DNA from: Candidatus Anstonellales archaeon
Lineage (GTDB): Archaea; Micrarchaeota; Micrarchaeia; Anstonellales; J096
Direction: 5' to 3'
DNA: 64,000 nucleotides
Assembly (NCBI GenBank): GCA_038890745.1
Contig: JAWAFD010000004.1
Location: 1-64,000, forward strand
Part shown: one piece after another, positions 30,967 through 60,755 of the stretch
Numbering within the stretch: position 1 is the stretch's first letter
How the letters are laid out: each line of letters starts with the position of its first letter
The notes under the pieces: model-generated
Told to the model about the DNA's origin: nothing
The model's input: only the letters and a program-made list of their open reading frames with translations
Databases searched by the model: none
Translations under genes and position numbers: made by a program

Positions 30967-31014
30967 TCAGACCGCACGTCAATCATCATTCATCAGAGTC
31001 GTACGTGTCATCAC
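30967..31014 (-). ncRNA. box C/D 2'-O-methylation guide sRNA
   Basis: GTGATGA-CACGTACGACT-CTGA-TGA-ATGATGA-TTGACGTGCGGT-CTGA: intact C, D', C' and D boxes with 11-12-nt guides; intergenic; TTTAAAT upstream. Confidence 0.92.
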
Positions 31015-31067
31015 TAACATTATGTATGCGAGCAACTTAATTTAAATTTTTCCACCCATAACCCTTC

Positions 31068-33335: not shown

Positions 33336-33376
33336 AAAAATGGTTATTTTTAAATTTTATTAATCAAAAGTATATC

Positions 33377-33721
33377 ATGAAAATGGTTGGTAGAACCCTA
33401 AAAGCAGTTTTCATTGGAATTACATTTTTATTGCCTTCACATCCAGTTTTTGCTAATGGGGGGATTGATGGTATGGTGGACACGACACAAATGAGTCAAT
33501 ACCAACGTATATATAGTGAGATAATAAAAATGAAAAAAGACGACAGTAAAGTTTTTTCCGATGTAGATATTGAGCTACTGGAGAGAATAACGAGAGATGC
33601 TGAGAAATCTACAGGAAAACTCTACTCAGTTATTCCTATTGAGGGTGGGTGTGAAGTTGCATGTCTAGGAAAATTTTCAGATTTTATCCCCAAAATAACT
33701 TATGAGATGCTTATTCAATAG
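33377..33721 (+). CDS. hypothetical secreted protein
   Basis: Signal peptide ending in PVFA; TATA-like element upstream. Confidence 0.55.
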   Translation: MKMVGRTLKAVFIGITFLLPSHPVFANGGIDGMVDTTQMSQYQRIYSEIIKMKKDDSKVFSDVDIELLERITRDAEKSTGKLYSVIPIEGGCEVACLGKFSDFIPKITYEMLIQ

Positions 33722-35075
33722 ACGTTTCACCGAATTTTTTTAATATGTACTCCAGTTTATGTTTTTGGTGGTTTTCTATCTTATGGGTTCTGGCGTATTC
33801 TTTTAATGATTTTAGCAATGGCCTGCTAGTTCTTTTCCACGCTCCGTTAGAAAGTTTTTCCAAAGCAAAATTAAATACGTAGCTTTTTAGACTTTCGTCA
33901 CCCCCCTCTAGAACATGCGCCATTCCGGCGGATGAGTATAATTCGATATCATCCGGTGTAATTCCATAAACCTTGTCTAAATTATTTTCGTGCATATATT
34001 CGACTAAATTTCCACCACCTATCGCAAGAGAATAGTACCCAACAATATTAAACCACGTAGGGTATTCTTTGTAAAGAATTATCAATTCTGCTATCTCCTT
34101 TGGTTCTTCTACAGACACCCTCTCAGTATCAATCCCCTGCAAAAACAAAACCCAAGCCAATCCATTTATTGTAGCTTTGGTTATCAGCCCAAGTTTAATA
34201 GCCGCCCTGTATACTATCTCCGCATTGCTCAGCAAAAGATCCCTTTCTATCCCAATCTTATTCCCTGCCTCAATCAGCAGATATGTAGCGTAGTTGCTAA
34301 AAAACAAGCCAACCATTGCATTAAAATTATCATAAATTCTATACTCAACAAGCTGAAGGTTTGCTTTTTCAAAATGTTTTCTTATCATTTCTTCATCCAT
34401 CTTTCCTTCTTTAAAATAAACCCCGCCAACATCTTTCAAAGCCCCATCAAGAAAATAGACTTTTCCTTCACCATCCAAAAAAACAAATGTATGACTTTGT
34501 AGATTTCCACTCTCAGTTCTTACAACACATTCGGCAACTTTTGGATTCTGATTTTTCAGATAACTTACAAGATAGGCAATAAAGGTAAACTCAAGGCAAC
34601 CCAATTTTTCTTGTTTTTCTGGATTAATCTCATCCAAATATCCTGGTTTTCCAGCAGCAGACTCCCACGTGAAATTCGATATTAGATAGAGATACGCTGT
34701 GCTTATCCTCTCCAAAACAGTTCCTTCAGCAGAATTGTACCCTTCATTAAACTTGTTTATGAGCTCTGCTGGAATCTTTCTTACTCTGTCCATGTCTGGA
34801 AATTGGGGAAGAAAAGGCTCTTCTAAAGAATACTGTCTTGCAAGGCTCATTATTGTTAAGACTGCTTCCGGGTGGTTCTCTGCCCAGTCAAACAAAGCCC
34901 TCATTAAATAAGGATCTCTTTCTTCAATTCCTCTCTTGAAATCCTGAAAACTGTTTAGATACTCTTTCGCTTTTTCGTATTCTTTGTATCCCTCTGCTTC
35001 CTTTTTGAATGATTTAAAAAGTTCAGTAGGTGTGAGTTCTTCAAGTTTTTTCAATTCCGGGAGGGCAGAGGCCAT
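33711..35075 (-). CDS. hypothetical protein with possible transglutaminase-like triad
   Basis: 454-aa ORF; LGCLEFT ... SHTFVFL ... FLDG. Confidence 0.65.
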   Translation of the reverse strand: MASALPELKKLEELTPTELFKSFKKEAEGYKEYEKAKEYLNSFQDFKRGIEERDPYLMRALFDWAENHPEAVLTIMSLARQYSLEEPFLPQFPDMDRVRKIPAELINKFNEGYNSAEGTVLERISTAYLYLISNFTWESAAGKPGYLDEINPEKQEKLGCLEFTFIAYLVSYLKNQNPKVAECVVRTESGNLQSHTFVFLDGEGKVYFLDGALKDVGGVYFKEGKMDEEMIRKHFEKANLQLVEYRIYDNFNAMVGLFFSNYATYLLIEAGNKIGIERDLLLSNAEIVYRAAIKLGLITKATINGLAWVLFLQGIDTERVSVEEPKEIAELIILYKEYPTWFNIVGYYSLAIGGGNLVEYMHENNLDKVYGITPDDIELYSSAGMAHVLEGGDESLKSYVFNFALEKLSNGAWKRTSRPLLKSLKEYARTHKIENHQKHKLEYILKKFGETSIE

Positions 35076-35110
35076 AACAGAAGTTGGTAAGAAAGTGTTT
35101 AAAAAGTTGT

Positions 35111-37483
35111 TTAGAAAAACTCCCTTATGCTCTTCTGGTTTCCAAGTCCTCTTACGTCCTCTTCGCTTACCCCAAGCTCTTTTAGTATTTTCATAACCGC
35201 AGGAAGGATCTGGTTGTTTACATAATACTCAGGATCGTAGTCACCTTCCTTAGCCATCTCAACAGGAATGGCTTTCTCTGAAATGCTCCTCCCTCTTTTG
35301 GAAACTATATACCCGATTACATTCCCGCTCTCTACCTTTCTTCCCTCAAGCTTCTCAAGCTTAAGCGCAGCAGCAACCTCAGGGCTTGTAACCTCATACG
35401 CTCGTGGCTCTTTTTTCAATTCAGTATAGATTACCAGATCCTTTAGCTTCGCATGTCCTTTCATTATTTCGTTCACGGTTTCCTTCACGATCTCGATTGC
35501 TTTCTCCTTGCTTCCTTCCTGAAGGATTGCTTTCAGAACTTTTAGTTGTGTTTTTTTTGCAATCGGGCTCCAGTCCCTTCTCACAAGCTCAAACCCTCTT
35601 ATCTTTATCTCCCCTTTTTCGTTTATTAGCGCATATTTCTTTTTAGCACCTTTTTCCTCTGCTTTTTTGCTTACAAAAACCCCGCGCTTATAAAAATCTT
35701 CAAGCTCAAGCTCCATCTTCTCGGGTAGATTCTTGTTTATGTGCTCCATGAATCTCAAAGCATCCTCTTTTGTTTTGTTTCCAAGAAGCAAAAAGAGGGA
35801 GTCAGTATCTTGATACAGAACAGTAAACCCCCACTTTTCAGCTTCTTTTCCCGCGTTTAGTATGTGCTCCCTTCCCAGTGCAGTAACGCTCTCCGCACAT
35901 TCCCTTTTGTACCATCTCGAGCGTGCGTACCCTAGATATCCATAGAATGAATTTGAAATTATCTTCAGCGCCTGGCTTCTCGCCTTTAGTTTCTCATACT
36001 CCTCGCTCCCTTTCCTCAAACTTTTCAATTTCTTCTTAATCTCAGTTCTCATGTCAACGAGCTTTTCAAGAGTTGAGGGGATGAGCCCCTTTGGTTTTTT
36101 TAAAAAATGCGCGCCAGTAGGAGAGGCGTAAGAGTTTTCTTTGCCCTCGGTAAGCGTGAAAGGATCTATATTATAGCTTATTATTATGGATGGGTACAGC
36201 CCGCGGAAATCAAAAACAGCAATATTTTCGTATATCCCGGGAGCAGGAAGCTTGACAAAAGCGCCCTTTATCGGGTTTGCCATTCTCCATTTTATCTCCT
36301 CCTCTTTTGGCTTCCTTGGTATGATCATGTTTCTTTTCTGCGCCTCATGGATAAGCATGCTTTCAACAAGCTGGCCGGATGTGCTCAGGGTTGTTTCAAA
36401 AAGGGTCATGTTTGCAAGGACAGAAAGCTCTTTCTCAAGCTCAAGGAGCGCCTCACCGACACTGAAAACAGCTTCTGCATCCGCAAGCGAGTACTCAAAC
36501 AGTTCTTCCTTGTTTTCATCCCAAAGTTTCCATATATCCAGCCGTTTGACCATCAGCTTTTCTTTACCCACAACACTTTCATAAACATCCTGTAAGGTAA
36601 ATTTGTTCACATTTATTACTCCTATCTGTCCGAGCAGCCTTGAAGCGGGATAGAGGTCAAAATGTACTCTCCCGGGTATGGTAAGGCCGGTGCTCAGCCC
36701 TTTCTTTCTTCTCTTTGCCCGCTCCTTCCATCTTGCAAAATCAACCCTCGCCTTTATTACCTTTCCCCTACTCTCCAAATAGGGAATGTCAAAGTTTGAT
36801 GAGTTGTACCCGTATATGATCTCCGGGTCGTATTTTTTTATTTTCTCTGAGAAAAGCGAAAACATCTCCTTTTCATCTTTTGCGAGAACAATACTCTCGT
36901 TTTTGTTTTTCTTGTAAGTTATAACTTTTTTTTCATCCGGTGTTTTGTAGCTTATCATTATAACCGGGTCCTTTTTCGCATCCGGCGCGCCATGTGGGTT
37001 GTACACCTCTATGTCAAAGCCCAATCTCTTTTCAAACTCAACCCTATCCTCGCTATCGCAGGAAATAAATTTTTTTATAAGCCTCCCATCCCGCTCGTAG
37101 GTTATCAGCGAGAGGGGGGTAAGTGAAAAATCGCTAAGAAACCTTTTTGTAAAAACAATATCATACTCGTAGCATTCGTACCCTAGCTTATGGTATATGT
37201 ACTCCCTTAGTTTCGGCACATCCTTTGGGGATTCGGCGTAGATTTTTGTGAGCTTCTTTTTTTCATTCCCAAAAAATTTTTCGCTCTCCTCTACCCTCTT
37301 TATTCTAGCGCCATTATACACCCCCGGCTTTATTTTTGTTATTGGGATATCGCTGAAAAAATACGGGTCGTATGGAAAATAAAGCCGGCAGTATTTTTTT
37401 CCTTTTAGAATAAGTTTTACGTATGTCTTTCCATTCTTCGTAATATACCCAACATCTATTAGGTAAGCCTTTCGCCTAACCAT
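35111..37483 (-). CDS. polB: family B DNA polymerase
   Basis: Exonuclease motifs FDIEV and YNSSNFD; polymerase motifs DFRGLYPSII, KIISNSFYG, YQDTDS, KKKYA, RGFELVRRDW. No intein. Confidence 0.97.
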   Translation of the reverse strand: MVRRKAYLIDVGYITKNGKTYVKLILKGKKYCRLYFPYDPYFFSDIPITKIKPGVYNGARIKRVEESEKFFGNEKKKLTKIYAESPKDVPKLREYIYHKLGYECYEYDIVFTKRFLSDFSLTPLSLITYERDGRLIKKFISCDSEDRVEFEKRLGFDIEVYNPHGAPDAKKDPVIMISYKTPDEKKVITYKKNKNESIVLAKDEKEMFSLFSEKIKKYDPEIIYGYNSSNFDIPYLESRGKVIKARVDFARWKERAKRRKKGLSTGLTIPGRVHFDLYPASRLLGQIGVINVNKFTLQDVYESVVGKEKLMVKRLDIWKLWDENKEELFEYSLADAEAVFSVGEALLELEKELSVLANMTLFETTLSTSGQLVESMLIHEAQKRNMIIPRKPKEEEIKWRMANPIKGAFVKLPAPGIYENIAVFDFRGLYPSIIISYNIDPFTLTEGKENSYASPTGAHFLKKPKGLIPSTLEKLVDMRTEIKKKLKSLRKGSEEYEKLKARSQALKIISNSFYGYLGYARSRWYKRECAESVTALGREHILNAGKEAEKWGFTVLYQDTDSLFLLLGNKTKEDALRFMEHINKNLPEKMELELEDFYKRGVFVSKKAEEKGAKKKYALINEKGEIKIRGFELVRRDWSPIAKKTQLKVLKAILQEGSKEKAIEIVKETVNEIMKGHAKLKDLVIYTELKKEPRAYEVTSPEVAAALKLEKLEGRKVESGNVIGYIVSKRGRSISEKAIPVEMAKEGDYDPEYYVNNQILPAVMKILKELGVSEEDVRGLGNQKSIREFF

Positions 37484-48069: not shown

Positions 48070-48285
48070 TTATGCGTTCTTCATCCTCGCCCTGTAAACA
48101 TAACCGTCTTTTCCGAGGAAGTAAAGGTATCCCTCTTCTTTTGTTATCTTTTCATTCCCAACCTTTTTCTTCCTTCCGCTTTTGTTGTGTTTCATCGGTG
48201 TTGCCCAGACATAACCGTCTTTTCCGATGTAGTAGAGATATCCCTCTTCCCTGTTTATCTTTTCCTTCCCAATTCTCTCAGCCAT
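48070..48285 (-). CDS. small basic protein with internal duplication
   Basis: Two copies of G(K/N)EKI..EEGYLY(Y/F)(I/L)GKDGYV; GGTGA SD-like motif. Confidence 0.85.
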   Translation of the reverse strand: MAERIGKEKINREEGYLYYIGKDGYVWATPMKHNKSGRKKKVGNEKITKEEGYLYFLGKDGYVYRARMKNA

Positions 48286-48375: not shown

Positions 48376-49626
48376 ATGGATTTTGGCAAAATTCTGAGAA
48401 AAATTTCTCCTTCACAAGCCGAGAAGCGCATGCTGAATGCAACGGCTAAGGAGGTTGTTTCAAAACTAAAAAAATACATTCCTGCTGAACCCATGCTCAT
48501 GGGTTCCATAGCAAAAGGGACATCCCTAAAAGGCGAGGCGGATGTAGACCTCTTCTTTTTATTCTCTAAAAAATATACAAAGGAGGAGATGGGAAGGATT
48601 GTAATTACCGCGTGCAAGAAAGTTTTCAGGAATGTCCTTGTCCACTACGCAGAGCATCCCTACGCGCGCTTCTACTACAAAAAAATAAAATTCGATATTG
48701 TACCCGCGTACAAATTGGAGAGCGTTTCTGAGATGGGAACATCTGTTGACAGAACGCAATTCCATCTTAAGTATATTAAAAAGCATCTCAGGAAATCCCA
48801 GATTAAGGAGGTTCTTCTGCTAAAACAGTTTCTGAAAGCAAACGATCTTTACGGTGCGGAGATAAAAACACAGGGTTTTTCTGGCTACCTCTGCGAACTT
48901 CTCATCATTGAGCATGGTTCTTTTCTTAACCTTCTGAAAGCCGCGAGCAAATGGAAGCCAAAATTTCCCGAACCGCTTGTTGTGCCAGACCCTGTTGATG
49001 AGAAAAGAAATGTTGCCTCTCCGCTTAGCAGGGAAAATTTTGATAGGTTTGTTGCGCTCGCAAAAGAATTTCTGAAAAATCCAAGCGAGGAGTTTTTCTT
49101 TCCAAAAATAAAAAAACTGAGCAAAAAACAATTGGCAGAAAAATTTTCGAATATCGTTGGGCTTGTTTTTCCTTCTCCAAAAGTTGTGGATGATATAAAA
49201 TGGGGGCAGATCAGAAAATTGAAAAATCAGTTAGAGCATTTTCTTTCTCACAAAGGATTTTTTATTGAAAACATATTTCTGTACGATGATGGAAAGATCT
49301 CAGCATTTATAGTTCATTATTTCCCCGACAGGCTTCCTCCGTATGCGGTTCAGCGCGGCCCGCCAATCACGGATGAAAAAAACGTCCAGGCATTCAAAAA
49401 AAAGCACAGAAAAACATTTGTAAAGGGTGAGAGGGTGTATGCTCTCGAAAAACAGCCGCAGGAAATCGAGCACCATCTCCGCATTTTTCTAAAATCTACT
49501 CTCCCATCGAAATACGAGAAGAATAAAAAGAAAATAAGGATATACAAAAAAGAAAAGGTGTTTAGCAAGTTTGCAGAAATGCTTTCACGACAGATTTTGA
49601 AGAAGAACATTTTTAAACCTTTATAG
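48376..49626 (+). CDS. cca: CCA-adding enzyme (archaeal class I)
   Basis: GSIAKGT, DVDLF, YAEHPY, DIVP, VDRT, GFSGYLCEL, DPVD..RNVA. Confidence 0.95.
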   Translation: MDFGKILRKISPSQAEKRMLNATAKEVVSKLKKYIPAEPMLMGSIAKGTSLKGEADVDLFFLFSKKYTKEEMGRIVITACKKVFRNVLVHYAEHPYARFYYKKIKFDIVPAYKLESVSEMGTSVDRTQFHLKYIKKHLRKSQIKEVLLLKQFLKANDLYGAEIKTQGFSGYLCELLIIEHGSFLNLLKAASKWKPKFPEPLVVPDPVDEKRNVASPLSRENFDRFVALAKEFLKNPSEEFFFPKIKKLSKKQLAEKFSNIVGLVFPSPKVVDDIKWGQIRKLKNQLEHFLSHKGFFIENIFLYDDGKISAFIVHYFPDRLPPYAVQRGPPITDEKNVQAFKKKHRKTFVKGERVYALEKQPQEIEHHLRIFLKSTLPSKYEKNKKKIRIYKKEKVFSKFAEMLSRQILKKNIFKPL

Positions 49627-49640
49627 ACACATTATAGTCC

Positions 49641-51128
49641 ATGGAAACTATTAGTTCAAAAATATCCAACTTGCATAAAGCATACAAACAACTTAATGGC
49701 TACAAAAAAATAAAAGAGGTAGCAAGAGAATTGCGGTTTGAGATCTCTAAAAGGATGTCAACTAGGTACGATATTATTGTTGAGTTTCCTCTTTTTATAG
49801 TACAAAAATATAACCTAAACCCTATTACGAGGCCCATAAAAGTAATAAAAGAAGAAGGAGGAGAATCTGTTTTTAATATCTATCTCCCTCCTATGCATAC
49901 GCATCTTCCAGTGGAGTTTTTGGAGAGATATAGGGCAGAGATGGGAAAATATATACCGTGGTTTGTTGAGAATTATCCGAACCTCCGCACATCCCCCATT
50001 GGTGCAAATGATTTTGATGTTCTGATTACTGTTGTGTTAAGAGAATTGATGAAAACAAACCATTATTTTTTAGAATACCTGCGCGATGAAAACAAGATTC
50101 TTGAAGAAAAAGGACTTAGGAAACGCCTTCTTCTTACCACTGGAGAAGCTTTCATTGTTTTCTTCATCTCAAAAATACAAGAGAAAATATTTAATATGGA
50201 GTTAGAACTAATGAATTTACTTTTGTCCATCATAAAAAGTGATGTGAGCAGAATAGATGTTCTTGCCGTGATACAAAAAGCAGGAAGAGAAAACAACAGC
50301 GCTTTGATTGAAGACTTTATAACCACAGAGCAGAAGAAGTACCATGAACAGAGGATGCAGAAGCTTAAAAGAGATGTTGGGGCTTATACTTGGTTGTTTA
50401 CGGATGAGGAACTTAAGAAATGTATCACCGAAGATGATTACTCCATTATAAAAAGAAAGATTAACTTATGCGATATATTCTCAAAACTTTTTTCAGGCCC
50501 TGATTTTCTTAATCTTGATAAAAAAGCGGATAAAAGTTTAATCCGTTTGATTATAAATATGTCGCTTGGTGCAGGAATAGAGAATGGAGCTGATGCTCTG
50601 AAATGGCTTTTTGAAAACAGAAAAATCTTTGATGCTTTGAATTTACCAGGTTCGAAAATGATATCGCATGCGTTGAAAAGGATTGAGAATCGTAAGATTG
50701 CTGAAACGAACAAAAAACAAAACAGGAGTGGGAAGGTGTCGGTAAAAACGAGTAGTGGCAGTGATAAAAAAAGGGACGATAAGGCAAAACTCAGAGAAAG
50801 AATGAATAAAGTTTGGAGCGAAGAATTACAGAAAAAAATTGAAAATGAAGGGGTTGACCCGCTCGCTGCCTATGCTTGTTTGGAGGCTTTTAAAATGAAA
50901 GGTGGGGCATACCCAACCGGCGCTGCATACAGAAACTTTACAAATGTTATGAAAGCCGCGAGTGGGAAGTATGGTGATAGAGAAAAGATAAATGTTGCGA
51001 TGGAATTTTTGATTTCTATAGGTATTGTTTTGGTCCGTGGGGATAAAAACGAAAAAACCGCAAACCTGACACACTATAACATTAAAGAAGAGTGGCGCGA
51101 GATTGCATTCTGGGTTGAAAAGCCATAA
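49641..51128 (+). CDS. hypothetical protein
   Basis: 495-aa uninterrupted ORF; no recognisable motif. Confidence 0.7.
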   Translation: METISSKISNLHKAYKQLNGYKKIKEVARELRFEISKRMSTRYDIIVEFPLFIVQKYNLNPITRPIKVIKEEGGESVFNIYLPPMHTHLPVEFLERYRAEMGKYIPWFVENYPNLRTSPIGANDFDVLITVVLRELMKTNHYFLEYLRDENKILEEKGLRKRLLLTTGEAFIVFFISKIQEKIFNMELELMNLLLSIIKSDVSRIDVLAVIQKAGRENNSALIEDFITTEQKKYHEQRMQKLKRDVGAYTWLFTDEELKKCITEDDYSIIKRKINLCDIFSKLFSGPDFLNLDKKADKSLIRLIINMSLGAGIENGADALKWLFENRKIFDALNLPGSKMISHALKRIENRKIAETNKKQNRSGKVSVKTSSGSDKKRDDKAKLRERMNKVWSEELQKKIENEGVDPLAAYACLEAFKMKGGAYPTGAAYRNFTNVMKAASGKYGDREKINVAMEFLISIGIVLVRGDKNEKTANLTHYNIKEEWREIAFWVEKP

Positions 51129-51165
51129 AACACACATTTTAAATATTTTTCATATAATATGCATC

Positions 51166-52236
51166 ATGGAAGTTATCTCAACTCTGGGAAGCCATTCTGC
51201 GTTGGATGTGTGCGAGGGCGCTAAGCGACATAATTTTAAGACCCTTGTTGTTTGCAAAAAAGGGAGGGAAAAAACATACGATCAGTATTATAAAACAAGG
51301 GTGAGGAATGGGGTAATAATTGGGGTTGTGGACAGTACAATAATTCTAGATGAGTTCAAGCAGATTGCAAACAAGGATGTGCAGAAAAAGCTGGAGGATA
51401 CAGTTTTTATTCCGAACAGAAGCTTTGCGGTTTATGTTGGCTATGATGTAATAGAAAAGGAAATTCATTTTCCGATTTTTGGGAATAAGTTTTTGCTCAG
51501 GGCAGAGGAGCGGGACGCTCCGAAAAATCAATTCTACCTTCTGGAAAAGGCTGGAATAAAAATACCCAAGGTTTATGAAAGGCCAGAGAAGATAGATTCG
51601 CTTGCGATAGTGAAGGTAAGCGAGGCAAAAAGGCATTATGAAAGGGCTTTTTTTGTTGTTTCATCATATGATGAGTACATGGAAAAGGCAAGCCAGATGC
51701 TGAGCGCAGGAATGGTAAAGGAGGAGGATTTGAAGAATGCGAGAATAGAGGAGTTTGTAATCGGTGCGCAGTTCAATTTCAATTTTTTCTACTCAAAAGT
51801 GAATAACGAGCTTGAGCTTCTTGGGCTTGATACCAGGAGGCAGGTGGATTTGGATGGTTTTCTCCATCTTCCGGCGGATAAGCAGCTGGAGGCTCTGAAA
51901 TACAAAAAACCAAAGAATATAGAAGTAGGCCATTTCGCATGCACTATAAGGGAAAGTTTTTTGGAGAAGGTTTTTGAGATGGGTGAGAAGTTTGTTTCAA
52001 CTGTGGAGAAGGAATATGGAAAGTTTGCGGGCCCCTTTGCCTTGCAAGGAATAATAGATGGTAATGAAGAGATGAAAATATTTGATGTGAGTTTTAGGAT
52101 GCCGGGCTCACCCGGAACGAGGTTTACTCCTTATTGCTATTATTTACACAGAAGAGGGTGCGGGGTTGGAGAAAGGGTTGCTGTTGAGATCCGAGAGGCG
52201 ATAAACAAGGAGATGCTGGATGAGGTGACGACATGA
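51166..52236 (+). CDS. purP: PurP-family ATP-grasp protein (AICAR formate ligase family)
   Basis: LGSHSALD, FIPNRSF, IFGN, ERAFF, IRES, GPFALQ. Start at ATG 51166. Confidence 0.9.
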   Translation: MEVISTLGSHSALDVCEGAKRHNFKTLVVCKKGREKTYDQYYKTRVRNGVIIGVVDSTIILDEFKQIANKDVQKKLEDTVFIPNRSFAVYVGYDVIEKEIHFPIFGNKFLLRAEERDAPKNQFYLLEKAGIKIPKVYERPEKIDSLAIVKVSEAKRHYERAFFVVSSYDEYMEKASQMLSAGMVKEEDLKNARIEEFVIGAQFNFNFFYSKVNNELELLGLDTRRQVDLDGFLHLPADKQLEALKYKKPKNIEVGHFACTIRESFLEKVFEMGEKFVSTVEKEYGKFAGPFALQGIIDGNEEMKIFDVSFRMPGSPGTRFTPYCYYLHRRGCGVGERVAVEIREAINKEMLDEVTT

Positions 52237-53237
52237 TCGCGAAGGAAAAAATAAATAGGATTGTTGAAAGTTATAAAGAGCTAAAAATAGCTACGCTCTG
52301 CTCCCACTCTGCCTTGCAGATTTTTTATGGTGCGAAGTTAGAAGGAATAAAAACAATCGGTATATGTACAAAAGAAAAGAAAAAACTTTACGAAAGATTT
52401 CCGAACACAAAGCCAGATGAGTTTATAATAGTAGATAGTTATAAGGATGTTGATTTCAGCGAGGTTGTTGCCAGAGAAGGAATAATCATTCCACATGGTT
52501 CTTTTGTTGAATATCTTGGGAAAAAACTTGATGCTGCTGAGGTTCCGGTGTATGGAAACAGAAAGTCGCTTGTTTACGAAAGGGATAGAGAAAGGATGCT
52601 CTCCTGGTTGAGGAAGGCCGGAATAAAGGTTCCGAGAACCCTTAAACCAAAAGAAATCAAAAAACCGGCAATAGTCAAGTTTCCGGGAGCAAAGGGGGGG
52701 AGAGGATACCCTATAGTAAAAAGCTATGAAGAGTACAAGAAAAAAGTTGGGGATAGGGAAGCGATCGCACAGGAGTTTATCTCAGGCATAAGAGCATACC
52801 CGCATTATTTTAATTCTATTTTTGAAGGTGTTGAATTGCTCGGGGTTGATAGAAGGATAGAGAGCAACGCGGATGAGTTTGCAAGGGCGATCGCGGCTGG
52901 GTATAAAGACATATCATTTACAATAGTTGCTAATGAAAGCATAATTCTGAGGGAAAGCCTTCTTTTGGAGTATGTAAAGATAGGGGACGCTGTTGTCAGC
53001 GCTTCCAAAAAAATATTTGGTGGAATTTTCGGCCCGTTCTGTGTTGAAACAATAATTACCCCGGATTTAGAGATATACGCATTCGAAATCTCCGCGAGAA
53101 TAGTTGCCGGAACGAACATTCTCTACCATCCATACGCCGAGTTTGCTTATGGAAAGGATATGTTTATCGGAAGAAGGATTGCGGTTGAGCTGAAAAGGGC
53201 ATTTAGAGAAAAAAGGATAAAGGAAATTGTTTACTAA
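52233..53237 (+). CDS. purP: PurP-family 5-formaminoimidazole-4-carboxamide ribonucleotide synthetase
   Basis: TLCSHSALQI, IPHGSFVEY, GAKGGRG, LRESLL, GPFC, FEISARIVAGTN. Confidence 0.92.
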   Translation: MIAKEKINRIVESYKELKIATLCSHSALQIFYGAKLEGIKTIGICTKEKKKLYERFPNTKPDEFIIVDSYKDVDFSEVVAREGIIIPHGSFVEYLGKKLDAAEVPVYGNRKSLVYERDRERMLSWLRKAGIKVPRTLKPKEIKKPAIVKFPGAKGGRGYPIVKSYEEYKKKVGDREAIAQEFISGIRAYPHYFNSIFEGVELLGVDRRIESNADEFARAIAAGYKDISFTIVANESIILRESLLLEYVKIGDAVVSASKKIFGGIFGPFCVETIITPDLEIYAFEISARIVAGTNILYHPYAEFAYGKDMFIGRRIAVELKRAFREKRIKEIVY

Positions 53238-53238
53238 G

Positions 53239-53489
53239 CGCCGGGGGTGGGATTTTCAGCCAAACCACCCTCCAAAACATCCTAAACAGATATGGGGTGG
53301 AAGCGTGATGCGGTGAAACAAGTGCGACCCAAAAGTTTAGGAGGGTTGGGTCGCACCGAAGCCCTCCGGGTTGTTTCATCGCATCAGGGGGGATGACAAA
53401 GAGTTAAAGCCCCCCTGGGCTTTCGAACCCACGCACCCTTTCGGGTAACAGCTTAGCAGGCTGCCGCCATACCTCTAGGCGACCCCGGC
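53239..53489 (-). tRNA. tRNA-Ser(GCT) with 169-nt intron at position 59/60 (intron 53253..53421)
   Basis: GCCGGGG TC GCC..GGC G GCAGC CT-GCT-AA GCTGT, long variable arm ACCC-GAAA-GGGT, GTGGG TTCGAA|intron|T CCCAC CCCCGGC G. BHB: TTCG/TGAA helix with AAA and AAT bulges. Confidence 0.95.
53294..53391. mobile_element. 98-bp repeat with 81-bp MITE-like core (53306..53386; 16-bp TIR), inside the tRNA-Ser intron
   Basis: Reverse complement of 58166..58263 with one mismatch. TIRs TGATGCGGTGAAACAA / TTGTTTCATCGCATCA; inner 11-bp hairpin. Mobility is inferred. Confidence 0.7.
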
Positions 53490-53582
53490 ACACTCTTTTT
53501 TCTGCACAAAAGGCTTTAAAAACTCTCCAAATCCTTTTTAAACATTTCTTATCCTAAATTATTCTTGTTTATGGTGATGGAA

Positions 53583-56579
53583 ATGGCAGAAGAAAAAAGT
53601 TTTGTGGATAGGCTTAAAGAAGATAGAGGGGCATTGGCGCTGGCGCTTTTAGCGCTTCTTTTAATTATATTCGGTGTTTTTGCTGTTCTTGGAGGAGCCG
53701 GCGTAGTTACCATGAGCCCGCCAACAAACCTGCAGGCAACAGTAATCTATCCTAATGTCAAACTTACCTGGGACCACTCGGTTGATTATCCAGATCCTTG
53801 CATAGGCTATAATGTATATTGGAGTACAACCCGTGGACAATTAGGGATTTTGCAGAATGCAGAGCCGATTGCGGATACTAAATATACTATTAAAAATGTA
53901 AAACCAGGAACTTATTATGCAACTGCTAGATGTGTTGATAATGCAGGAAATGAGGATGGTAATCTTGAACAGACCGAGGTTAAGGTTGAACTTCAGCCCC
54001 CGTCAGGTCTTTCAATAGTAATAAATGATGGGGCAGAATACACGAACAAAAGAGATGTTACGCTTGCTCTTTCAGCAACAAATGCCGAAGAATGCACGAA
54101 TGCAAATGAAAATATGGATTGGAGCCCGTGGGGTCCGTATACGGTAGAAAAGGAATGGAAGCTTACAGAGAACGCAGGAGGATGCGAAGAGAAAACAGTT
54201 TACTACAAATGCAGAAACGCTGGTGGAGAATCTTCTCCTGTTTCTGACACAATAATTCTTGATACCCTTCCGCCTTCAGTTTCATTCAACGTTCTTTCTG
54301 CAAAGGATAACACACTAACCATACAGATATTTGCGCAGGATGACTGCGTTCGAGGTGTAGATTGTTATGTTTTTGCAGGTAATCAGCAGATTGGCTCCAT
54401 CCAAAATCTTGCTGGGCAGGCTGAGAGAACATATGAGGTTCCGTATGGAACATATCTATTAGCTGTTGCCTGTACTGATGGTGCAGGAAACTCTGGTTCT
54501 GCTGCACTTGAAGTAAATGTTAAGCAACCCGAGAATGCAACAAACAAAACAGAGATATCCATAAAAATAAATAATGATGCTGCTACAACAACCTCTCTTG
54601 ATGTAACCCTAAACCTTTATTGCAGAATAAACGGGGAAACTCCAGATGCTGTTTACTACAGCAGCGCTGAGATGGGTGAGGTTGGGCCTGAAAGCTACAC
54701 AACATCAAGAAGCTGGGAGCTTGATAATAAAGCCCCAGAGCACACTAGAACTTACACAGTTTGTTATAGGTGCGAAAAGGACGATGTTACGGCAAGGGCA
54801 TGCGATTCCATAAGGTATGTTGTTGAAGAAGAAGGTGGAGGAGGCGGAGGTGGCGGAGGTGGCGGTGGCGATGGACAGGTTCCGCCAAAAAACCTTAAAG
54901 CAGAAATAATTGGATACAGAACCCCTATTGGTACCGGATGGCACTTACCGGTGCTAATACCAGATACTGAAGTTACAAAGGGGAGTGGAGAGACTGGAGG
55001 AGTTTACCTGAGCCTCTCTTCAAGCGGTGCAACTGAGTGCAAGGTTTGGAATGAGAAAATAGAAGGCGTAGATACAGGTGATGATGAAGAGAGCGATGTT
55101 GAATGGAGTTCAGACCTTGTAAATAATCCTAGGTATCCTTGGAAGCTTATTCCTTCTATGATAGTGCAGGTTGAACCAGGGCCAGGAGGGGATGAGTTTA
55201 GACCTAAGGCATTTATAATTATTGTTGGGGATGGAAACAGAACAATAAATTATAAATGCAAAAATAATGCAGGTACAACAGGACCGATTAAGGATAGTAT
55301 ATGGTATGATGCAACAAAACCAAGCTCTGTTGTAAGTTTGAGCGGGGAATATAGAACAATGCTTGGTGAGGGAGATATTGGTTTACCAATTATAAACATA
55401 AAGCTTACATGGGAGCCTTCTGTAGATAACTCTTGGAACTGGGAAGGATATACGCACAAAGGAATACAGCTTTACTCTGTTTGCAGAGCATACACCCTAC
55501 AGAACGACCCAACAAAGTCAAAGCACGACTTTGGATGCAAAGACTACACTCCGGCAGAGATCGGATGCGAGGAGGAAAATGGCTATTTTGCGCTTGAGTG
55601 TGCTCTTACTGACTTTGAACTTCCATCCGACCTACTCAGTCAGGGCGGAAAGATGTGCTATGATGTTAGTGCTTGGGACTATGTTGGATGGCAGAGCAGT
55701 GCTGAACGTGTTTGCGTGGATGTTCCACCATCAGGGCCGATAGATAAAGTTCCAGAAATAATATGGGTTGCAATATATGAAGGAGTAGGTGGGATAGGCG
55801 AAGGCGGAGGAGAGGAACTTCAAGCAAAGGAAAGCACTAGTAAAGTTGAAAAGATAGTAGGTAGCGTAAGCAGTCAAAACCCAACATCAGTTATTCTACT
55901 TGCGCAGCCTGCATATGAAGGAGGTGTACCTCTCAGCCCACCACCGGGAGAGAGCGGGGATATGTACACAAGAATTGCAAATGTTCGTGTACGGGTGATG
56001 GCAGTAAATGCAGAGAAGTGCATGCTTGGGAATGATGGGCCTGTAAAAGGTCAGCCAGTATGGAGCGGAACCTGGAGTGACTATAACGGAGACCCAACAA
56101 CATATACATGGACATTAAATGATAAAGAGGGAAGAAGAACAGTATTCGTTAAATGCAAAAATAACTTCGGCGAGTCAGCCATAGCTAGCGATAGTATAAT
56201 CTACGACCACACGCCGCCCGAAGTTGTTGGTACTGATTGGAAGGCGAATTACATAGAAACATGCGAGAAGAACTGGATATATGTTGCATGGAGCGGTGTA
56301 TTCAATGATGCGATTTCAGGTATAAAACAATATACTGTTAGAGAATATACGCGATATCTAATTGGCGGAGGAGGAAAAGGAGGGCCAGCGTATAACTGGA
56401 CAGAGACAGGAAACTGGACAACTCAAGATACATTCTTGTACGACTACAACTTTGTAAAGGATACTACGTACAAATATACAATAACTGCATGCGACAATGC
56501 AGGCAACTGCAATAACGTTGGTGTTACCACGGATCCGGTTACACCAACAAAAGACCCGTACAACGTTCCGTGTGAGTAA
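53583..56579 (+). CDS. large membrane-anchored surface protein with FN3/Ig-like and Cys-containing repeats
   Basis: N-terminal TM, PPTNL..LTWD..GYNVY FN3 pattern, repeated IN.GA..T...VTL / YKC.N..G / SD.I..D modules, poly-Gly linker. Confidence 0.82.
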   Translation: MAEEKSFVDRLKEDRGALALALLALLLIIFGVFAVLGGAGVVTMSPPTNLQATVIYPNVKLTWDHSVDYPDPCIGYNVYWSTTRGQLGILQNAEPIADTKYTIKNVKPGTYYATARCVDNAGNEDGNLEQTEVKVELQPPSGLSIVINDGAEYTNKRDVTLALSATNAEECTNANENMDWSPWGPYTVEKEWKLTENAGGCEEKTVYYKCRNAGGESSPVSDTIILDTLPPSVSFNVLSAKDNTLTIQIFAQDDCVRGVDCYVFAGNQQIGSIQNLAGQAERTYEVPYGTYLLAVACTDGAGNSGSAALEVNVKQPENATNKTEISIKINNDAATTTSLDVTLNLYCRINGETPDAVYYSSAEMGEVGPESYTTSRSWELDNKAPEHTRTYTVCYRCEKDDVTARACDSIRYVVEEEGGGGGGGGGGGGDGQVPPKNLKAEIIGYRTPIGTGWHLPVLIPDTEVTKGSGETGGVYLSLSSSGATECKVWNEKIEGVDTGDDEESDVEWSSDLVNNPRYPWKLIPSMIVQVEPGPGGDEFRPKAFIIIVGDGNRTINYKCKNNAGTTGPIKDSIWYDATKPSSVVSLSGEYRTMLGEGDIGLPIINIKLTWEPSVDNSWNWEGYTHKGIQLYSVCRAYTLQNDPTKSKHDFGCKDYTPAEIGCEEENGYFALECALTDFELPSDLLSQGGKMCYDVSAWDYVGWQSSAERVCVDVPPSGPIDKVPEIIWVAIYEGVGGIGEGGGEELQAKESTSKVEKIVGSVSSQNPTSVILLAQPAYEGGVPLSPPPGESGDMYTRIANVRVRVMAVNAEKCMLGNDGPVKGQPVWSGTWSDYNGDPTTYTWTLNDKEGRRTVFVKCKNNFGESAIASDSIIYDHTPPEVVGTDWKANYIETCEKNWIYVAWSGVFNDAISGIKQYTVREYTRYLIGGGGKGGPAYNWTETGNWTTQDTFLYDYNFVKDTTYKYTITACDNAGNCNNVGVTTDPVTPTKDPYNVPCE

Positions 56580-56594
56580 TCTTTTTTCTTTTTT

Positions 56595-57155
56595 ATGTTT
56601 TTTAAAAACCCTTACATTAAAATTTTTCTTTTTTCTGTTTTTCTAATACTCTTAGTTATTATTATTTCTGCCTATTTTACGAATTATTCGACGTTTTCCA
56701 TGAGCAAGGGAAAAAAGCCAGCTTCGGTTAGACATGGAGAGTGGATGGAATACAGGATGGAACCGGAGAATAAAACAATTTTTTATTATTCCTTAGGTCA
56801 GGATTGCTACAGGATAAAAATTGAAAACGCCACTTTTGATTACTGTATAAACAAAACAGGAATTTTTCCGGACCCTCTTGCTTATTTTTATCTTCCAGTC
56901 ATTCCATACAACAATCGCACGCCATCTTACTATGCTCAATTTGCAAACATCTCTGGTTATGTTTTTGAAATAGATTCAACACATTTCTATTACTCCGGTG
57001 AAACCGAGTATATCGATAGGCCGGCATACATCATAAAAACAAACAAAAACACTACGTATTTAGTTGACAAAGAAAAAGAAATAGCAGTTTTTATTGATTT
57101 TGGTCAGGTTAAGCTGAACCTGACAAATTCGTCTTTCTTACAGAGAGGGGGATGA
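56595..57155 (+). CDS. hypothetical membrane-anchored protein
   Basis: N-terminal TM helix; follows the FN3 gene. Confidence 0.65.
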   Translation: MFFKNPYIKIFLFSVFLILLVIIISAYFTNYSTFSMSKGKKPASVRHGEWMEYRMEPENKTIFYYSLGQDCYRIKIENATFDYCINKTGIFPDPLAYFYLPVIPYNNRTPSYYAQFANISGYVFEIDSTHFYYSGETEYIDRPAYIIKTNKNTTYLVDKEKEIAVFIDFGQVKLNLTNSSFLQRGG

Positions 57156-57294
57156 CCCCCTTTTCTAGCTCCTCCCGGGCTATTTCTATAAAATCCTGCT
57201 CTGGTTTCACTTTTATCAATGGGGGAGAGCCTAAGGCAAGCTGAAATGCCCTTGCACCAAGTATTCTTGCGAGTTCAAATTTATCGTACTCCAT
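57109..57294 (-). CDS. rpoK: RNA polymerase subunit K (Rpo6)
   Basis: KFELARILGARAFQLALGSP, IAREELEKGVIPLSV. Confidence 0.93.
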   Translation of the reverse strand: MEYDKFELARILGARAFQLALGSPPLIKVKPEQDFIEIAREELEKGVIPLSVRKTNLSGSA

Positions 57295-57298
57295 CTAC

Positions 57299-58078
57299 TC
57301 ACCTTTTTCCGCCCCTTTTTCTTTCTTTTGTTTTTTTGGGTTTTATTATTTTTGGGGAAATTCTTTTAATGCTTTCTCCCGCTTCAGCCGACCCCATTCT
57401 TTCTTCAACATGTGGCTTTCTTTCCTCCTGCTCTCTTTTCTTTTTCATTTCCTCAATCTCAATCTGCATCCTGTTTAGCCTTGCTTCAATATCGTTTATC
57501 TTATTTCCGAAATTTGAGATCATCATCGTAAGCCGTTCTATTATTCTTGTTTCCTCCTTCTCAAACTCCTCCTCTCTCTCCATCGCATGCTTTGCTACCT
57601 CGACCTTGCTTAGCATAGTGCTTACAAGCTCTTTGTAATCACTTATGCCCGGAAGAATGATGTCCGATTCCCCAACATTGCTTCCGGCAGTCTCTATTCT
57701 AAGCGTTGCAAGCCCTAAAAGCTTTTCCAATGGGCTTCTTTCTATATTTACATTTTGCATTTTTTCATATGGTACAACATATGTTTCAGTTCTTATAACC
57801 CCCTTCCTTATCCTTATTTCTGTTTTGTCTAATTTATACCTAAATGCTTTATACACAAGCTCTATCCATGCGAAATAGGGAAGCGCAATGAGCAAAAGTA
57901 GGATGAAGAGGACAACAGGTCCGATGCTTGAGTCAAAACCCAGAAAGTTTATATTGAACCTTACTATTGCAAAACTTAGGATGATCCATATCACAAGGAG
58001 TAATAGTATTGCATTGAGCGACCACAGGAACTTTACTTTTCCATCAAGATGAACCCATTCTCCGTTTTCTTCATTCAT
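57299..58078 (-). CDS. bacterial-PH-domain (YdbS-like) membrane protein with coiled-coil tail
   Basis: Two TMs, IRKGVI, VPYEKMQNV, PLEKLLGLATLRIETAG. Start at ATG 58078; the track's longer start runs through tRNA-Trp. Confidence 0.85.
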   Translation of the reverse strand: MNEENGEWVHLDGKVKFLWSLNAILLLLVIWIILSFAIVRFNINFLGFDSSIGPVVLFILLLLIALPYFAWIELVYKAFRYKLDKTEIRIRKGVIRTETYVVPYEKMQNVNIERSPLEKLLGLATLRIETAGSNVGESDIILPGISDYKELVSTMLSKVEVAKHAMEREEEFEKEETRIIERLTMMISNFGNKINDIEARLNRMQIEIEEMKKKREQEERKPHVEERMGSAEAGESIKRISPKIIKPKKTKERKRGGKR

Positions 58079-58165
58079 GATAGTTGTTTGTATTTTATTG
58101 TTTAAAAATGTTTGGGGCTGCTGGGATTTCCACCAGACCAGGGGGTACTTTAACTTATTCTCAGA

Positions 58166-58263
58166 CCCCCTGATGCGGTGAAACAACCCGGAGGGCTTCG
58201 GTGCGACCCAACCCTCCTAAACTTTTGGGTCGCACTTGTTTCACCGCATCACGCTTCCACCCC
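58166..58263. mobile_element. second, inverted copy of the 98-bp repeat (core 58171..58251, perfect 16-bp TIR), inside the tRNA-Trp intron
   Basis: TGATGCGGTGAAACAA...TTGTTTCACCGCATCA; 97/98 identical to the reverse complement of 53294..53391. Confidence 0.7.
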
Positions 58264-58322
58264 CTATCGTATTAGGGGACCAGAGGGGAGGTCAGCTTAT
58301 TAGATGACCCCCCTAGCTCCAA

Positions 58323-58426
58323 CCCCCCTATCTTATACGAGCAAGGGTTAGCCAAGGGGGGACTTAAGCATATTCTTATTCCCCCCTCACGCTTCCACCC
58401 CCCTATTTTATACGAGCAAGGGTTAG
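58323..58426. repeat. 29-bp direct repeat pair (75-bp period) within the tRNA-Trp intron
   Basis: CCCCCCTAT(C/T)TTATACGAGCAAGGGTTAG at 58323..58351 and 58398..58426. Confidence 0.9.
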
Positions 58427-58814
58427 TCAATATAGGGGGTAGTAGAGTAAGGGGGTCTGCGATAAGCAATAGTACCCCCTAGTCTAACGGAGGATACATG
58501 GAACCTAGGGGGAAACTTCCCCCTGGGTTTGGTTTTGAACCCAGATATGCAGGTTTCTTCAACCATCCTCCCCTCAGGTTAAGGGAAGGGGTAGGAGATT
58601 AGAAGGAAATGGGGGAACCGTAGGTTCCCCTGGTTCCTCTCCTGGAGCCTGCCGTGTTGCCTGGTTGCACCACAGCCCCAACGCTTTTATTTCTATTCAG
58701 TATTTATTTAAATGCTTTTTGTTTTGTGTTTTTTGGGGGAGTTTTGCTATTCTTATTTTCCGCCTAAAAAGCAACGCATTTAAAACAATATGCTCAAATC
58801 AACGCGGTGGTTGG

Positions 58815-58994
58815 ATGGACCAGGATGGTCTTAATCTCCCTAGGAAAATTGAAAACGGAGAGGTTGACTTATACTCCCTTTCTGATTCTGAAAAAATAAA
58901 AGCAGGCATATGCCCATCGTGCGGAAACAAACTCATGTTTGCAGAAGGATGTAAGACATGCTACAACTGCGGCTGGAGCGGTTGTGACGGTTAG
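58815..58994 (+). CDS. small zinc-ribbon protein resembling the class II ribonucleotide reductase C-terminus
   Basis: CPSCGNKLMFAEGCKTCYNCGWSGC; GGTGG SD-like motif before ATG 58815. Confidence 0.75.
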   Translation: MDQDGLNLPRKIENGEVDLYSLSDSEKIKAGICPSCGNKLMFAEGCKTCYNCGWSGCDG

Positions 58995-58996
58995 GT

Positions 58997-60307
58997 TTAG
59001 ATTATTTTTACTATCTCTTCCAAAATTTCCTTCTCAAATCCCTTTCTTATTTTGAGCGAAGCCGCCTTATCATGTCCGCCACCGCTTTCTATAAAATCCG
59101 GCGCGGATGATTTTATTTTTTCTATTATTTCATTTGCATTTACTTTTTTCGCTGCCTCATCCGTTACTCGGAAAATAATATATTTTTCGCTATACCCGAG
59201 CACTATCGCATTTTCTCCTTTAACCATATCATAAGCTATGGAGGTTATTTTTCCCCTGCTAGGAAACTCGCCCTTCGTTGCAATCCTATCCAAGTTAAGA
59301 AGATAGATGGTAATACCATCCTTTTCCCTTTTCTTTAGGTTTGCTTTTACGCTTTCCTTCAAGTTCTCCAGTTTTTCCTTCGCCTGCCGGAGCATGGATT
59401 CATAGAGCGCGGGCTTTTCCATAACTTCCCTGTAAAAATCCAAGCTGTTTCCAAAGCTTGAGTATGTTGCAAGGTAATCCAAAACCAAAGCCTTGTTTTT
59501 ATCCTCATCCTCAAAAGGCAAGAGGTCGCTTTTGTCTCCGGCCAGAGATGTTTTTACATATTTTTCAAAATCCATTCCACATGCCCTAGCCACTTCTATG
59601 GCAATATACCCTGCGGTGTGCTTGCTCGCATTTTCTTCGCCAAATTTCCATGGTGATAAAAAACAGGCATACTGCTCAATATTTTTTGCGGGTGGATGGT
59701 GGTCTATTACTATTGTTTCTATTCCATCTGCTTTTAGAAGCTCCAGCCCGCTGATGCTTTCCTCATTTGCTCCAAAGTCAACTAGGATAACAAGCGGCAT
59801 GAAATTATTTCTTGCAGAATTTATGTCTGTGAGTGCATCCCTAACTGAGTATATGGCAGAATTTTGTTGAAATTTTTGTGCATTGAGAATTGAAGAAATC
59901 GCAATCCCACCGACAATACCATCAGCATCTGCATGGAATCTTAAAATAGTAAAACGGTTCAGTTTTTTTGCAACGAGCAGCTTTTTTGCAACCTCCCTTG
60001 CATGCGGAATAAGTTTTTTCATTACTTCTGTTTTTATTATCGGCTCATTTTCCAAAACACGCACGCTTTTTTCTATTTCATCGCATATTCTTTTTCTTTT
60101 TTCTTCGCTTTCCTTTTTTACTTCCTTTGCAACTATCTGTAATGTTTCTCCTCTCAACTGAGTTTCTCCCTTTGCAGTAATAACATCGCCGACATTGTAG
60201 AATTCTTTGCTCAAAACCTCAAGCTGCTCCCTATCCGCAATTGTGAGAACAAAAAAATCCTTTATGTTTTTAACTCTGGTTACTATTCCTGTTTTTTCCA
60301 ATTCCAT
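58997..60307 (-). CDS. RecJ-like DHH phosphoesterase with N-terminal OB fold
   Basis: FHADADG, LVDFG, IDHH, DHHA1 GGGHDKAA. Confidence 0.88.
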   Translation of the reverse strand: MELEKTGIVTRVKNIKDFFVLTIADREQLEVLSKEFYNVGDVITAKGETQLRGETLQIVAKEVKKESEEKRKRICDEIEKSVRVLENEPIIKTEVMKKLIPHAREVAKKLLVAKKLNRFTILRFHADADGIVGGIAISSILNAQKFQQNSAIYSVRDALTDINSARNNFMPLVILVDFGANEESISGLELLKADGIETIVIDHHPPAKNIEQYACFLSPWKFGEENASKHTAGYIAIEVARACGMDFEKYVKTSLAGDKSDLLPFEDEDKNKALVLDYLATYSSFGNSLDFYREVMEKPALYESMLRQAKEKLENLKESVKANLKKREKDGITIYLLNLDRIATKGEFPSRGKITSIAYDMVKGENAIVLGYSEKYIIFRVTDEAAKKVNANEIIEKIKSSAPDFIESGGGHDKAASLKIRKGFEKEILEEIVKII

Positions 60308-60359: not shown

Positions 60360-60755
60360 ATGTTTAAATTCCTTGAACACACCTCTGATGAGCTTCTCTA
60401 TGTTGAGGCCGAGAATTTCAAAAATGCGGTTTCGGATTTGGCGAATGGTATGATCTATTTGATGGAGACAAAATCAGATGAAAAATCTGTAATAACAGTC
60501 CAGTACAAAAATGAAAAATTGGAGGACTTTGTTGTTCGCCTACTTGAAAAAATTATTGCGGAAATCGAGACCAGACCGTTTCATCCTGTTAGGGCGGAGG
60601 TTTTGGAAGCGAAGGAGAAACCATACTATGCAAAAATAAAATTATATGGAGAGAAAAAAACACCACCCAACCCGATAAAAGCAGTTACCTATCACATGCT
60701 CATTGCAAAAAAAGAAAAGGGAAAGTATATCTTCAGGGTGCTTTTTGATATATAA
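60360..60755 (+). CDS. archease
   Basis: FKFLEHTSD and IKAVTYH, ending in VLFDI. Confidence 0.93.
   Translation: MFKFLEHTSDELLYVEAENFKNAVSDLANGMIYLMETKSDEKSVITVQYKNEKLEDFVVRLLEKIIAEIETRPFHPVRAEVLEAKEKPYYAKIKLYGEKKTPPNPIKAVTYHMLIAKKEKGKYIFRVLFDI

Follow-up and report, generated by a model that had tools for sequence, protein, structure and literature searches.

The window analyzed in this work is the whole stretch of 64,000 nucleotides at positions 1-64,000 of contig JAWAFD010000004.1 (assembly GCA_038890745.1), from a Candidatus Anstonellales archaeon that we refer to as G000; the other G and X labels denote related genomes and read runs, respectively. Two of its genes, coding for tRNA-Ser(GCT) and tRNA-Trp(CCA), are interrupted in the T-loop by introns, each of which embeds a copy of a short palindromic sequence that we call element E (Table 1). 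A first-pass annotation of the window had described two inverted 98-bp segments in these introns, and the comparison of positions 53294-53391 with the reverse complement of 58166-58263 confirmed them (97 identical nucleotides out of 98), together with the weaker similarity that had been noticed beyond them, the match reaching 135 nt at 91% or 142 nt at 90.8% identity in two alignments. The same annotation had recognized an 81-bp core with 16-bp terminal inverted repeats (TIRs) and an inner 11-bp hairpin, and indeed the arms pair at all 16 positions in the Trp copy and at 15 of 16 in the Ser copy. Folded as DNA, the core has a z-score of -7.15, and none of 200 shuffled sequences was equally stable. 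It is this non-coding core, the relatives of which measure 66-146 bp, that represents the unit, and not the 98-bp segment previously regarded as mobile, whose remaining 17 bp belong to a repeat hosting E. An Rfam scan of positions 52500-59500 gave 10 matches at E-values up to 5 and none at the gathering score. A search for an intron within the intron found no bulge-helix-bulge (BHB) motif at the base of E; there, a simple stem closes the element within a multibranch loop of the Ser intron.

Table 1. Features of the tRNA-Ser and tRNA-Trp loci (positions are those of the window).
Feature	Position	Strand	Remarks
tRNA-Ser(GCT) gene	53239..53489	-	exon 1 53422-53489, T-loop intron, exon 2 53239-53252; ARAGORN on the spliced form
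tRNA-Ser(GCT) intron at 59/60, 169 nt	53253..53421	-	strict BHB by sequence; one antisense hairpin-repeat unit
Element E copy 1, 81 bp	53306..53386	.	16-bp TIRs, inner hairpin A (11 bp, 13-nt loop), 5-nt linker, collapsed hairpin B
Host G-run/G-run/loop/C-run hairpin repeat with E at the hinge	53294..53416	+	antisense to tRNA-Ser
tRNA-Trp(CCA) gene, two introns	58113..58679	-	
tRNA-Trp canonical 37/38 intron, 87 nt (inferred)	58555..58641	-	
tRNA-Trp intron at 59/60, 407 nt	58127..58533	-	strict BHB by sequence; 'forward type' start plus four hairpin-repeat units (three sense, one antisense)
Element E copy 2	58171..58251	.	80/81 identical to copy 1; same hinge, sense-oriented host repeat
Host hairpin repeat holding E copy 2	58140..58264	-	left flank of intron lineage, right flank of trailer type
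Two empty host repeats (58284-58327, 58355-58402)	58284..58402	-	sense to tRNA-Trp
Empty host repeat	58435..58480	+	antisense to tRNA-Trp; type of the units opening tRNA 3' trailers

ARAGORN retrieved no tRNA in the window because both introns sit in the T-loop, and called tRNA-Ser(gct) once the 169-nt intron had been removed; T-loop introns of this kind show why standard annotation misses these tRNAs. Both T-loop junctions can be read as strict 3-4-3 BHB motifs. Forcing these motifs costs 3.0 kcal/mol (Ser) and 7.8 kcal/mol (Trp) above the minimum free energy; the latter value implies that the Trp precursor has a competing fold, and in the fold of the whole pre-tRNA-Trp the BHB is absent at equilibrium, with or without E. 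In the Ser precursor, the pairing of the inner stem amounts to 0.94-0.96 with E, 0.76-0.83 without it and again 0.94-0.96 with E flipped. In these models E is predicted to leave the stem closing the intron intact in either orientation. The earlier suggestion that E folds back on itself in either orientation inside introns that are spliced out can be retained as far as the predicted closing stem and the BHB junctions are concerned, and we can speculate that splicing in vivo would be indifferent to E.

The search of the genome with the 81-bp core by BLAST gave 16 matches, i.e., 14 full copies (92.6-100% identity), one partial copy of 57 nt and a 35-nt match that is part of a 107-bp relative of E, so that the Ser/Trp pair is not a two-copy one-off. 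The full copies are distributed over 11 sites. Seven copies lie in five tRNA introns (Ser-GCT, Trp, Arg-TCT, Leu-TAG, and Leu-GAG), the other seven in four arrays located behind tRNA 3' ends plus two arrays elsewhere. Three of the sites are tandem pairs of E, whose members share an interior variant and are separated by 1 nt. A ~70-bp G5/C5 hairpin repeat (G-run/loop/C-run) hosts all 14 copies, always at the same hinge. A regular expression found 46 units of this repeat, to which four filled sites and two intron units were added by eye before the Fisher test was performed; E occupies 5 of the 14 hinges in introns and 6 of the 38 outside them (p = 0.14). Genome-wide, the copies are strongly clustered at tRNA genes (our list of 28 tRNA genes is hand-curated and incomplete), and this clustering follows the host repeat, not the introns as such. 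The idea that E targets or prefers tRNA introns as safe havens is not supported, since half of the copies lie outside introns, no significant excess over the other hinges exists, and the copies read in G028, G106, G147, G054, and G040 are not at tRNAs. As for the hinge itself, G001 lacks E, yet it harbors other two-hairpin inserts at the same point of the host repeat (L108 and L109, on its contigs C38 and C39).

The orientation of E relative to the host repeat is the same in 13 of the 14 copies, including the Ser and Trp ones, and flipped in the Leu-GAG copy. The Ser intron is of a 'reverse type' in common with the Arg-TCT, Leu-TAG, and Leu-GAG introns, and its reverse complement, once deprived of E, aligns over ~60 nt with the sense-type introns of Ser-GGA and Gly-CCC. 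Therefore, what is inverted between the Ser and Trp loci is the host repeat. This does not agree with the first-pass view of two insertions of opposite orientation, given that, with respect to the repeat, the two copies are oriented alike and share their left flank.

It appears hardly credible that the pair was created by misassembly or by a single event of inverted duplication. Several contigs of G000 and G002 do end within these repeat arrays, a contig of G058 looks chimeric, and among the contigs listed none spans a whole copy of E together with both unique flanks; on the other side, the 14 copies carry locus-specific variants, the summed depth in the bin of the Trp copy is ~13 times the single-copy value in runs X1 and X2, and related elements exist in seven other genomes. 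The unique DNA between the two copies is recovered with no differences in X1 and X2 (in the latter as one contig, 53394-58160), either of which may be the source sample; run X4 covered 15 of 30 bins.

A DNA search of 61 genomes revealed relatives of E in G002 and G058. They are 103-105 bp long and possess two full inner hairpins; therefore, the 81-bp form must have lost most of hairpin B. Two covariance models detected members in 6 of 151 genomes of the order (R1) and in 5 of 151 genomes of the phylum (R2), that is, in eight genomes altogether, and the covariance search of 101 genomes belonging to families f13-f24 retrieved none. Judging from these searches, the E family appears to consist of three-way-junction palindromes, 81-146 bp long and confined to one order of Micrarchaeota. 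In an alignment of 22 members, 96.9% of the cells are paired (33-41% in slid controls) and 24 of 28 pairs show two-sided changes, with 145 cells of two-sided versus 10 of one-sided change; these figures come from related rows and from a structure derived from the same rows, and do not represent a probability. A mismatch recurs at position 9 of the arms (U-G in six rows, non-pairing in six). In wider pattern searches, the exact inner 22-mer of E had no match in either genome contigs or viral contigs, and the hairpin pattern none in viral contigs; in genome contigs this pattern gave 12 stretches, three of which come from Micrarchaeota, and the two that were read among the other nine looked like chance. 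The 15 viral matches of a TIR 17-mer had no partner arm within 1 kb, and the paired-TIR pattern was found at one metagenomic locus.

The members of the family differ in their surroundings. G002 has 10 loci, eight of them in arrays outside introns and two at contig ends, where they immediately follow the T-loop of Val tRNAs; both orientations of E occur at its hinge, and the inner loops of E are also flipped in places. G028 shows 58 arm matches versus three in a reversed control, often nested or in tandem, and none of the loci read is at a tRNA; one copy lies in frame within a wyosine-formation radical SAM gene. Elsewhere, copies are placed between genes or inside coding sequence.

Some single loci are worth reporting. 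On a G058 contig (L003, C37:1-260), the 3' ends of a tRNA-Val and of a tRNA-Met lie on opposite strands and are connected by intron repeats with a copy of the element; the contig might be a chimera or a real inversion, it resembles the repeats of the genus of G000, and it may be misbinned. At L124 (G002 C37:9047-9151), a copy centers a long inverted duplication of more than 150 bp on each side, for which recombination between opposed copies, fold-back or misassembly could account. In G028, a larger palindromic repeat, whose terminus is fixed, encloses nested E-type elements (L140-L160), some arrays abut IS200/605-like ends, and an rve-type insertion sequence (IS) adjoins one array. Many short hairpins in the arrays of G000, G001, and G002 close with C-GNA-G triloops, which are unusually stable DNA mini-hairpins.

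Evidence of mobility comes from orthologous sites. The 107-bp relative (G000 C2:135073-135179) interrupts the overlap between an aminotransferase gene and the aTrm56 gene, supplying an in-frame GTG and a stop; the same site is empty in G001 and G002, the net gain in G000 being 105 bp. In the diverged strain X3, one contig joins position 53296 to 53388 without E, with 10 other letters between them (depth 11.2, 51 nt on the shorter side), and the T-loop intron of the G002 tRNA-Trp is shorter and also devoid of E. Direct repeats were scored at 25 sites, with 2-bp repeats at 9, 1-bp repeats at 14 and none at 7; the probability of the 2-bp figure, ~1e-5 for a chance of 1/16, is overstated since the sites are related and of low complexity. 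Repeats of 4-6 bp occur at none of the 25 sites (longer ones were not scored). Hence the original proposal of a discrete, non-coding unit moving at the DNA level is borne out by the empty sites, by the X3 intron, by the 2-bp repeats and by the unrelated contexts in eight genomes, and the sequence comparison indicates that E is mobile DNA, not specific for introns. A TA duplication of the IS630-like kind was also considered; it fits the copies with TAAC-type ends and fails at the homologous TGA-type ends.

The search for a transposase, or an HUH/Y1 enzyme, sharing the termini of E was carried out and gave no partner in the families searched. Within the family to which G000 belongs, a Y1 gene is present in 1 of 19 genomes (in none of G000, G001, and G002) and a tyrosine recombinase (PF00589) in none of the 19. 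Among nine genomes, Y1 was found in three, a tyrosine recombinase in two and Cas1 in two, with no enzyme common to all the carriers. The Y1 genes read in G028, G106, and G147 belong to what we take to be ordinary IS200/605 elements, and no E lies beside them; at eight Y1 loci the R2 model gave no significant match (best E-value 0.71). The ends of the rve-type, DDE_3, Y1, and TnpB elements of the carrier genomes, whose assemblies are 82-94% complete, differ from those of E. A weak PF07282 match in G000 (E-value 9e-4) corresponds to a short Cys-rich open reading frame (ORF).

Three further kinds of mobilization were examined and rejected. An element targeting tRNAs by a tyrosine integrase is contradicted by the absence of PF00589 from the 19 genomes and by the fact that tRNA 3' fragments, found in some trailer units, do not surround E. 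In the case of casposons, the Cas1 of G000 is encoded in a CRISPR locus that also contains cas2 and an array, and G002 harbors E with no Cas1 match. Lastly, the arms of E are unbulged, which does not fit integron attC sites, and no integrase is present. The CRISPR-Cas locus of G000 (C3:~20600-35400) embeds cas1, cas2, and ~59 repeats, the spacers of which match neither E nor the two tRNA loci; the genes upstream are presumably of type III-A, and what we take to be an RtcB-like gene adjoins the locus. Hypothetical candidates compatible with a staggered joining of 2 bp are an IS30-like DDE enzyme, a serine recombinase and topoisomerase VI.

How, then, did the copies spread? In G000, the variants of E and their flanks are completely linked: all seven intron copies share one loop variant and a GCG-type flank, and all seven non-intron copies share another loop variant and an AGG-type flank. 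In addition, the identity between the Ser and Trp copies continues beyond the TIRs into the flanks, and at six filled non-intron sites the filled repeat has two more G than the empty one. The linked classes, together with the mixed flanks of the Trp copy, in which an intron-type left flank is joined to a trailer-type right flank, point to ectopic recombination or gene conversion following one or two insertions; the single variant and left flank shared by all the intron copies likewise suggest few insertions, then ectopic recombination. Based on these data, we consider it probable, though far from certain, that E is a non-autonomous palindromic DNA element of the miniature inverted-repeat transposable element (MITE)/REPIN type, which underwent few insertions and was then carried along as cargo when tRNA-associated repeats recombined.

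According to this model, true insertions of E would be rare, would rely on an enzyme supplied in trans and would often leave a direct repeat of 1-2 bp. The 81-bp form would derive from an element of 103-107 bp by collapse of the second hairpin. One or two insertions might have occurred into the hinge of the ~70-bp G5/C5 repeat, which would be the builder of both the T-loop introns and the arrays behind tRNA genes. From there, most of the spread of E would have been as cargo: repeats would have exchanged it through ectopic recombination or gene conversion, tandem duplication would have multiplied it locally, and inverted repeats would have allowed it to flip. The Ser/Trp pair would then be a copied tract, E having been transferred, along with its left flank, from one intron type (antisense or sense) to the other, and E might persist in introns as its closed junction leaves the BHB ends free.

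Some observations weigh against the model of few insertions followed by recombination. The aTrm56 junction represents a clean duplication only if one substitution is assumed, and the X3 contig could correspond to a Leu locus, not to Ser. The direct repeats lack uniformity (seven of the 25 sites are without one), and the sites themselves are of low complexity and not independent of each other. G000 has no match to PF00589, PF01797, PF00078, PF01609, PF00239, PF02371, PF00665, or PF13358 (other transposase families were not searched), and no ORF-bearing copy with the ends of E was seen. Moreover, repeated insertion into one preferred site could also give shared flanks, and the covariation can be produced by repair between the arms, thus being no proof of selection.

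In a different scenario, close to the first-pass view, each copy is a separate site-specific transposition: an enzyme acting in trans would excise E as a circle with a 1-nt junction and insert it at the hinge, introns and trailers being true targets. The three tandem pairs fit this scheme, as they have the same 1-nt spacer, in one case where the flank microhomology predicts 2 nt; so do the two orientations found at the same hinge in G000 and G002, the nesting and tandems of G028, and a different sub-family placed after the T-loop of two Val tRNAs in G002 (2 of 10 loci, cut by contig ends). Against it stand the full linkage of variant and flank in G000 (seven versus seven copies), the lack of a significant intron excess, the copies read away from tRNAs in five other genomes, and the lack of an enzyme in G000 and G002 among the families searched. 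We therefore regard this scenario as unlikely, albeit the strongest competitor of the spread as cargo that we favor.

A remaining question concerns the introns that carry E. Their distribution changes even among close relatives. The tRNA-Ser(GCT) orthologues have different T-loop introns in G001 and G002 and no intron in G004 and G006; in the eight other family members read, the tRNA-Trp T-loop intron is absent or very short. For tRNA-Gly(CCC), three states coexist in one genus, namely no intron plus a trailer array (G002), an antisense-type intron (G001) and a sense-type intron (G000). Thus, this genus represents a traceable case of intron turnover, with interiors in both orientations, arrays behind tRNAs, differences between sister species and strains, and a marker, E, with empty alleles; DNA and RNA routes of intron spread become testable in it. 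In this genome, intron contents have been exchanged at the DNA level.

The first-pass annotation had taken the opposite orientation of the two copies as an argument against spread by reverse splicing. The DNA-level rearrangement stands, but segments between inverted repeats flip at several levels, and orientation leaves room for an RNA step in the history of the introns. Introns might have spread, with E on board, via an RNA stage (reverse splicing, or reverse transcription of the excised intron), and flips between inverted repeats in the DNA would later have given the inverted forms. Near-identical introns at 59/60 in different tRNAs would agree with such a route, as would the flips of E and of its inner loops; in addition, each of the 10 trailers opens with a unit antisense to its tRNA (eight of these units lie at +7 or +8, two at +20), and the arrays thus start antisense to a sense-type intron, as a cDNA would. 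On the contrary, G000 has no RVT_1 match, the trailers start without an encoded CCA, and E also occurs in coding and intergenic DNA with short direct repeats. The pair changes, nearly all two-sided and Watson-Crick, and the mismatch pattern at position 9 fit a strand-symmetric DNA structure. The RNA route is, in our opinion, quite improbable.

One can also imagine, very tentatively and with more doubt than conviction, that the T-loop introns of this genus originated as DNA elements, namely the ~70-bp hairpin unit and E, its passenger. Both would be non-autonomous, and the enzyme placing them in tRNA genes would belong to none of the usual families of recombinases and transposases. Insertion would take place at either of two points: 7-8 bp past the tRNA end, always with one polarity, or within the palindromic T-loop, in both orientations, with survival limited there to the insertions that form a BHB.

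Other repeats are found at the tRNA genes of G000. The hairpin of the canonical tRNA-Trp intron is found again in tandem units at other places of the genome, next to fragments of tRNA-Leu(CAA). The anticodon introns of Leu-TAG and Leu-TAA (C1:313723-313910 and C2:248980-249320) contain tandem 79-bp hairpin repeats, present also in a Cys intron. Tandem units of ~110 bp, each with a copy of a tRNA 3' part and a variable hairpin cargo, lie behind tRNA-Ala, -Thr, and -Leu(CAA) (C1:179317-179794, C2:313720-314089, C1:~252000-252358, and C3:77017-77443), and the 3' end present in the unit that follows Ala(GGC) is that of Ala(CGC). These units have the appearance of att-site arrays, although the 19 family genomes yielded no tyrosine recombinase. 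Within the window, the region between the two tRNAs (53565-57155) codes for a secreted-looking protein of 1004 aa with no Pfam match at an E-value of 1e-5, and strain X3 diverges there, with 726 other letters between 56218 and 56589. The surrounding genes include those for a CCA-adding enzyme (48376-49626) and an archease (60360-60755), two adjacent DUF1246/DUF1297 paralogues (51103-53237), and a 71-aa ORF (48070-48285) made of two similar halves (a 64-bp repeat, 86% identical) and lacking a Pfam match.

As far as known systems are concerned, E has the structure and the presence/absence pattern of a MITE with no partner IS; given its variable direct repeats and this lack of a partner, we do not place it in a named family. 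It is one more family of palindromic mini-elements, a kind common in prokaryotes, and its interest lies mainly in the link to intron turnover. A palindromic element of Methanocaldococcus jannaschii is said to offer a parallel, although our literature search did not find it. REP/REPIN/BIME sequences, moved by RAYT Y1 transposases, share with E the nested hairpins, the tandem arrays and the position behind genes and tRNAs; unlike them, E exists in genomes with no Y1 (G000 and G002), and the Y1 loci found elsewhere are not flanked by it. As described in a MITE review (PMC10969869), prokaryotic MITEs, including archaeal ones, are, like E, short, non-coding, multicopy and TIR-bounded, show presence/absence at orthologous sites and, at many sites, short direct repeats, and are moved in trans; E differs in having no partner IS found with the same ends, variable direct repeats of 0-3 bp and a conserved three-way-junction interior. 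The words 'tRNA' and 'intron' do not occur in that review. It also reports Rickettsia palindromic elements, which, similarly to the E family, are palindromes of 100-150 bp entering coding sequence without breaking it; in this comparison, made by description and not by sequence, the difference is that most copies in the genus of G000 ride in tRNA-associated repeats.

Searches of the open-access literature listed no case in which archaeal tRNA introns contain a palindromic mobile element, and the order-wide E family, its empty sites and the analysis of its orientation are new. A mobile element beside a disrupted tRNA is reported for Caldiarchaeum in PMC3293823, and a 2026 Asgard preprint (10.64898/2026.10.13.758758) found no general route by which tRNA introns are gained and exchanged. 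ARMAN-2 has 59/60 T-loop introns cut by the epsilon-2 endonuclease (PMC3239211), and these correspond to the Ser and Trp introns in position, BHB geometry and phylum; the 59/60 intron tested there measures 13 nt, whereas those described here are 169 and 407 nt long and built of repeats. The mechanism of tRNA intron transposition is presented as unknown, and supposed to act at the DNA level, in PMC4090602. The host introns resemble the transposed tRNA intron families of Thermoproteales (Fujishima et al. 2010, as cited in PMC4090602 and PMC4033280), with which G000 shares the presence of similar introns in different tRNAs of one genome; here, in contrast, homologous interiors are found in both orientations, and also outside introns, with a mobile element nested within them.

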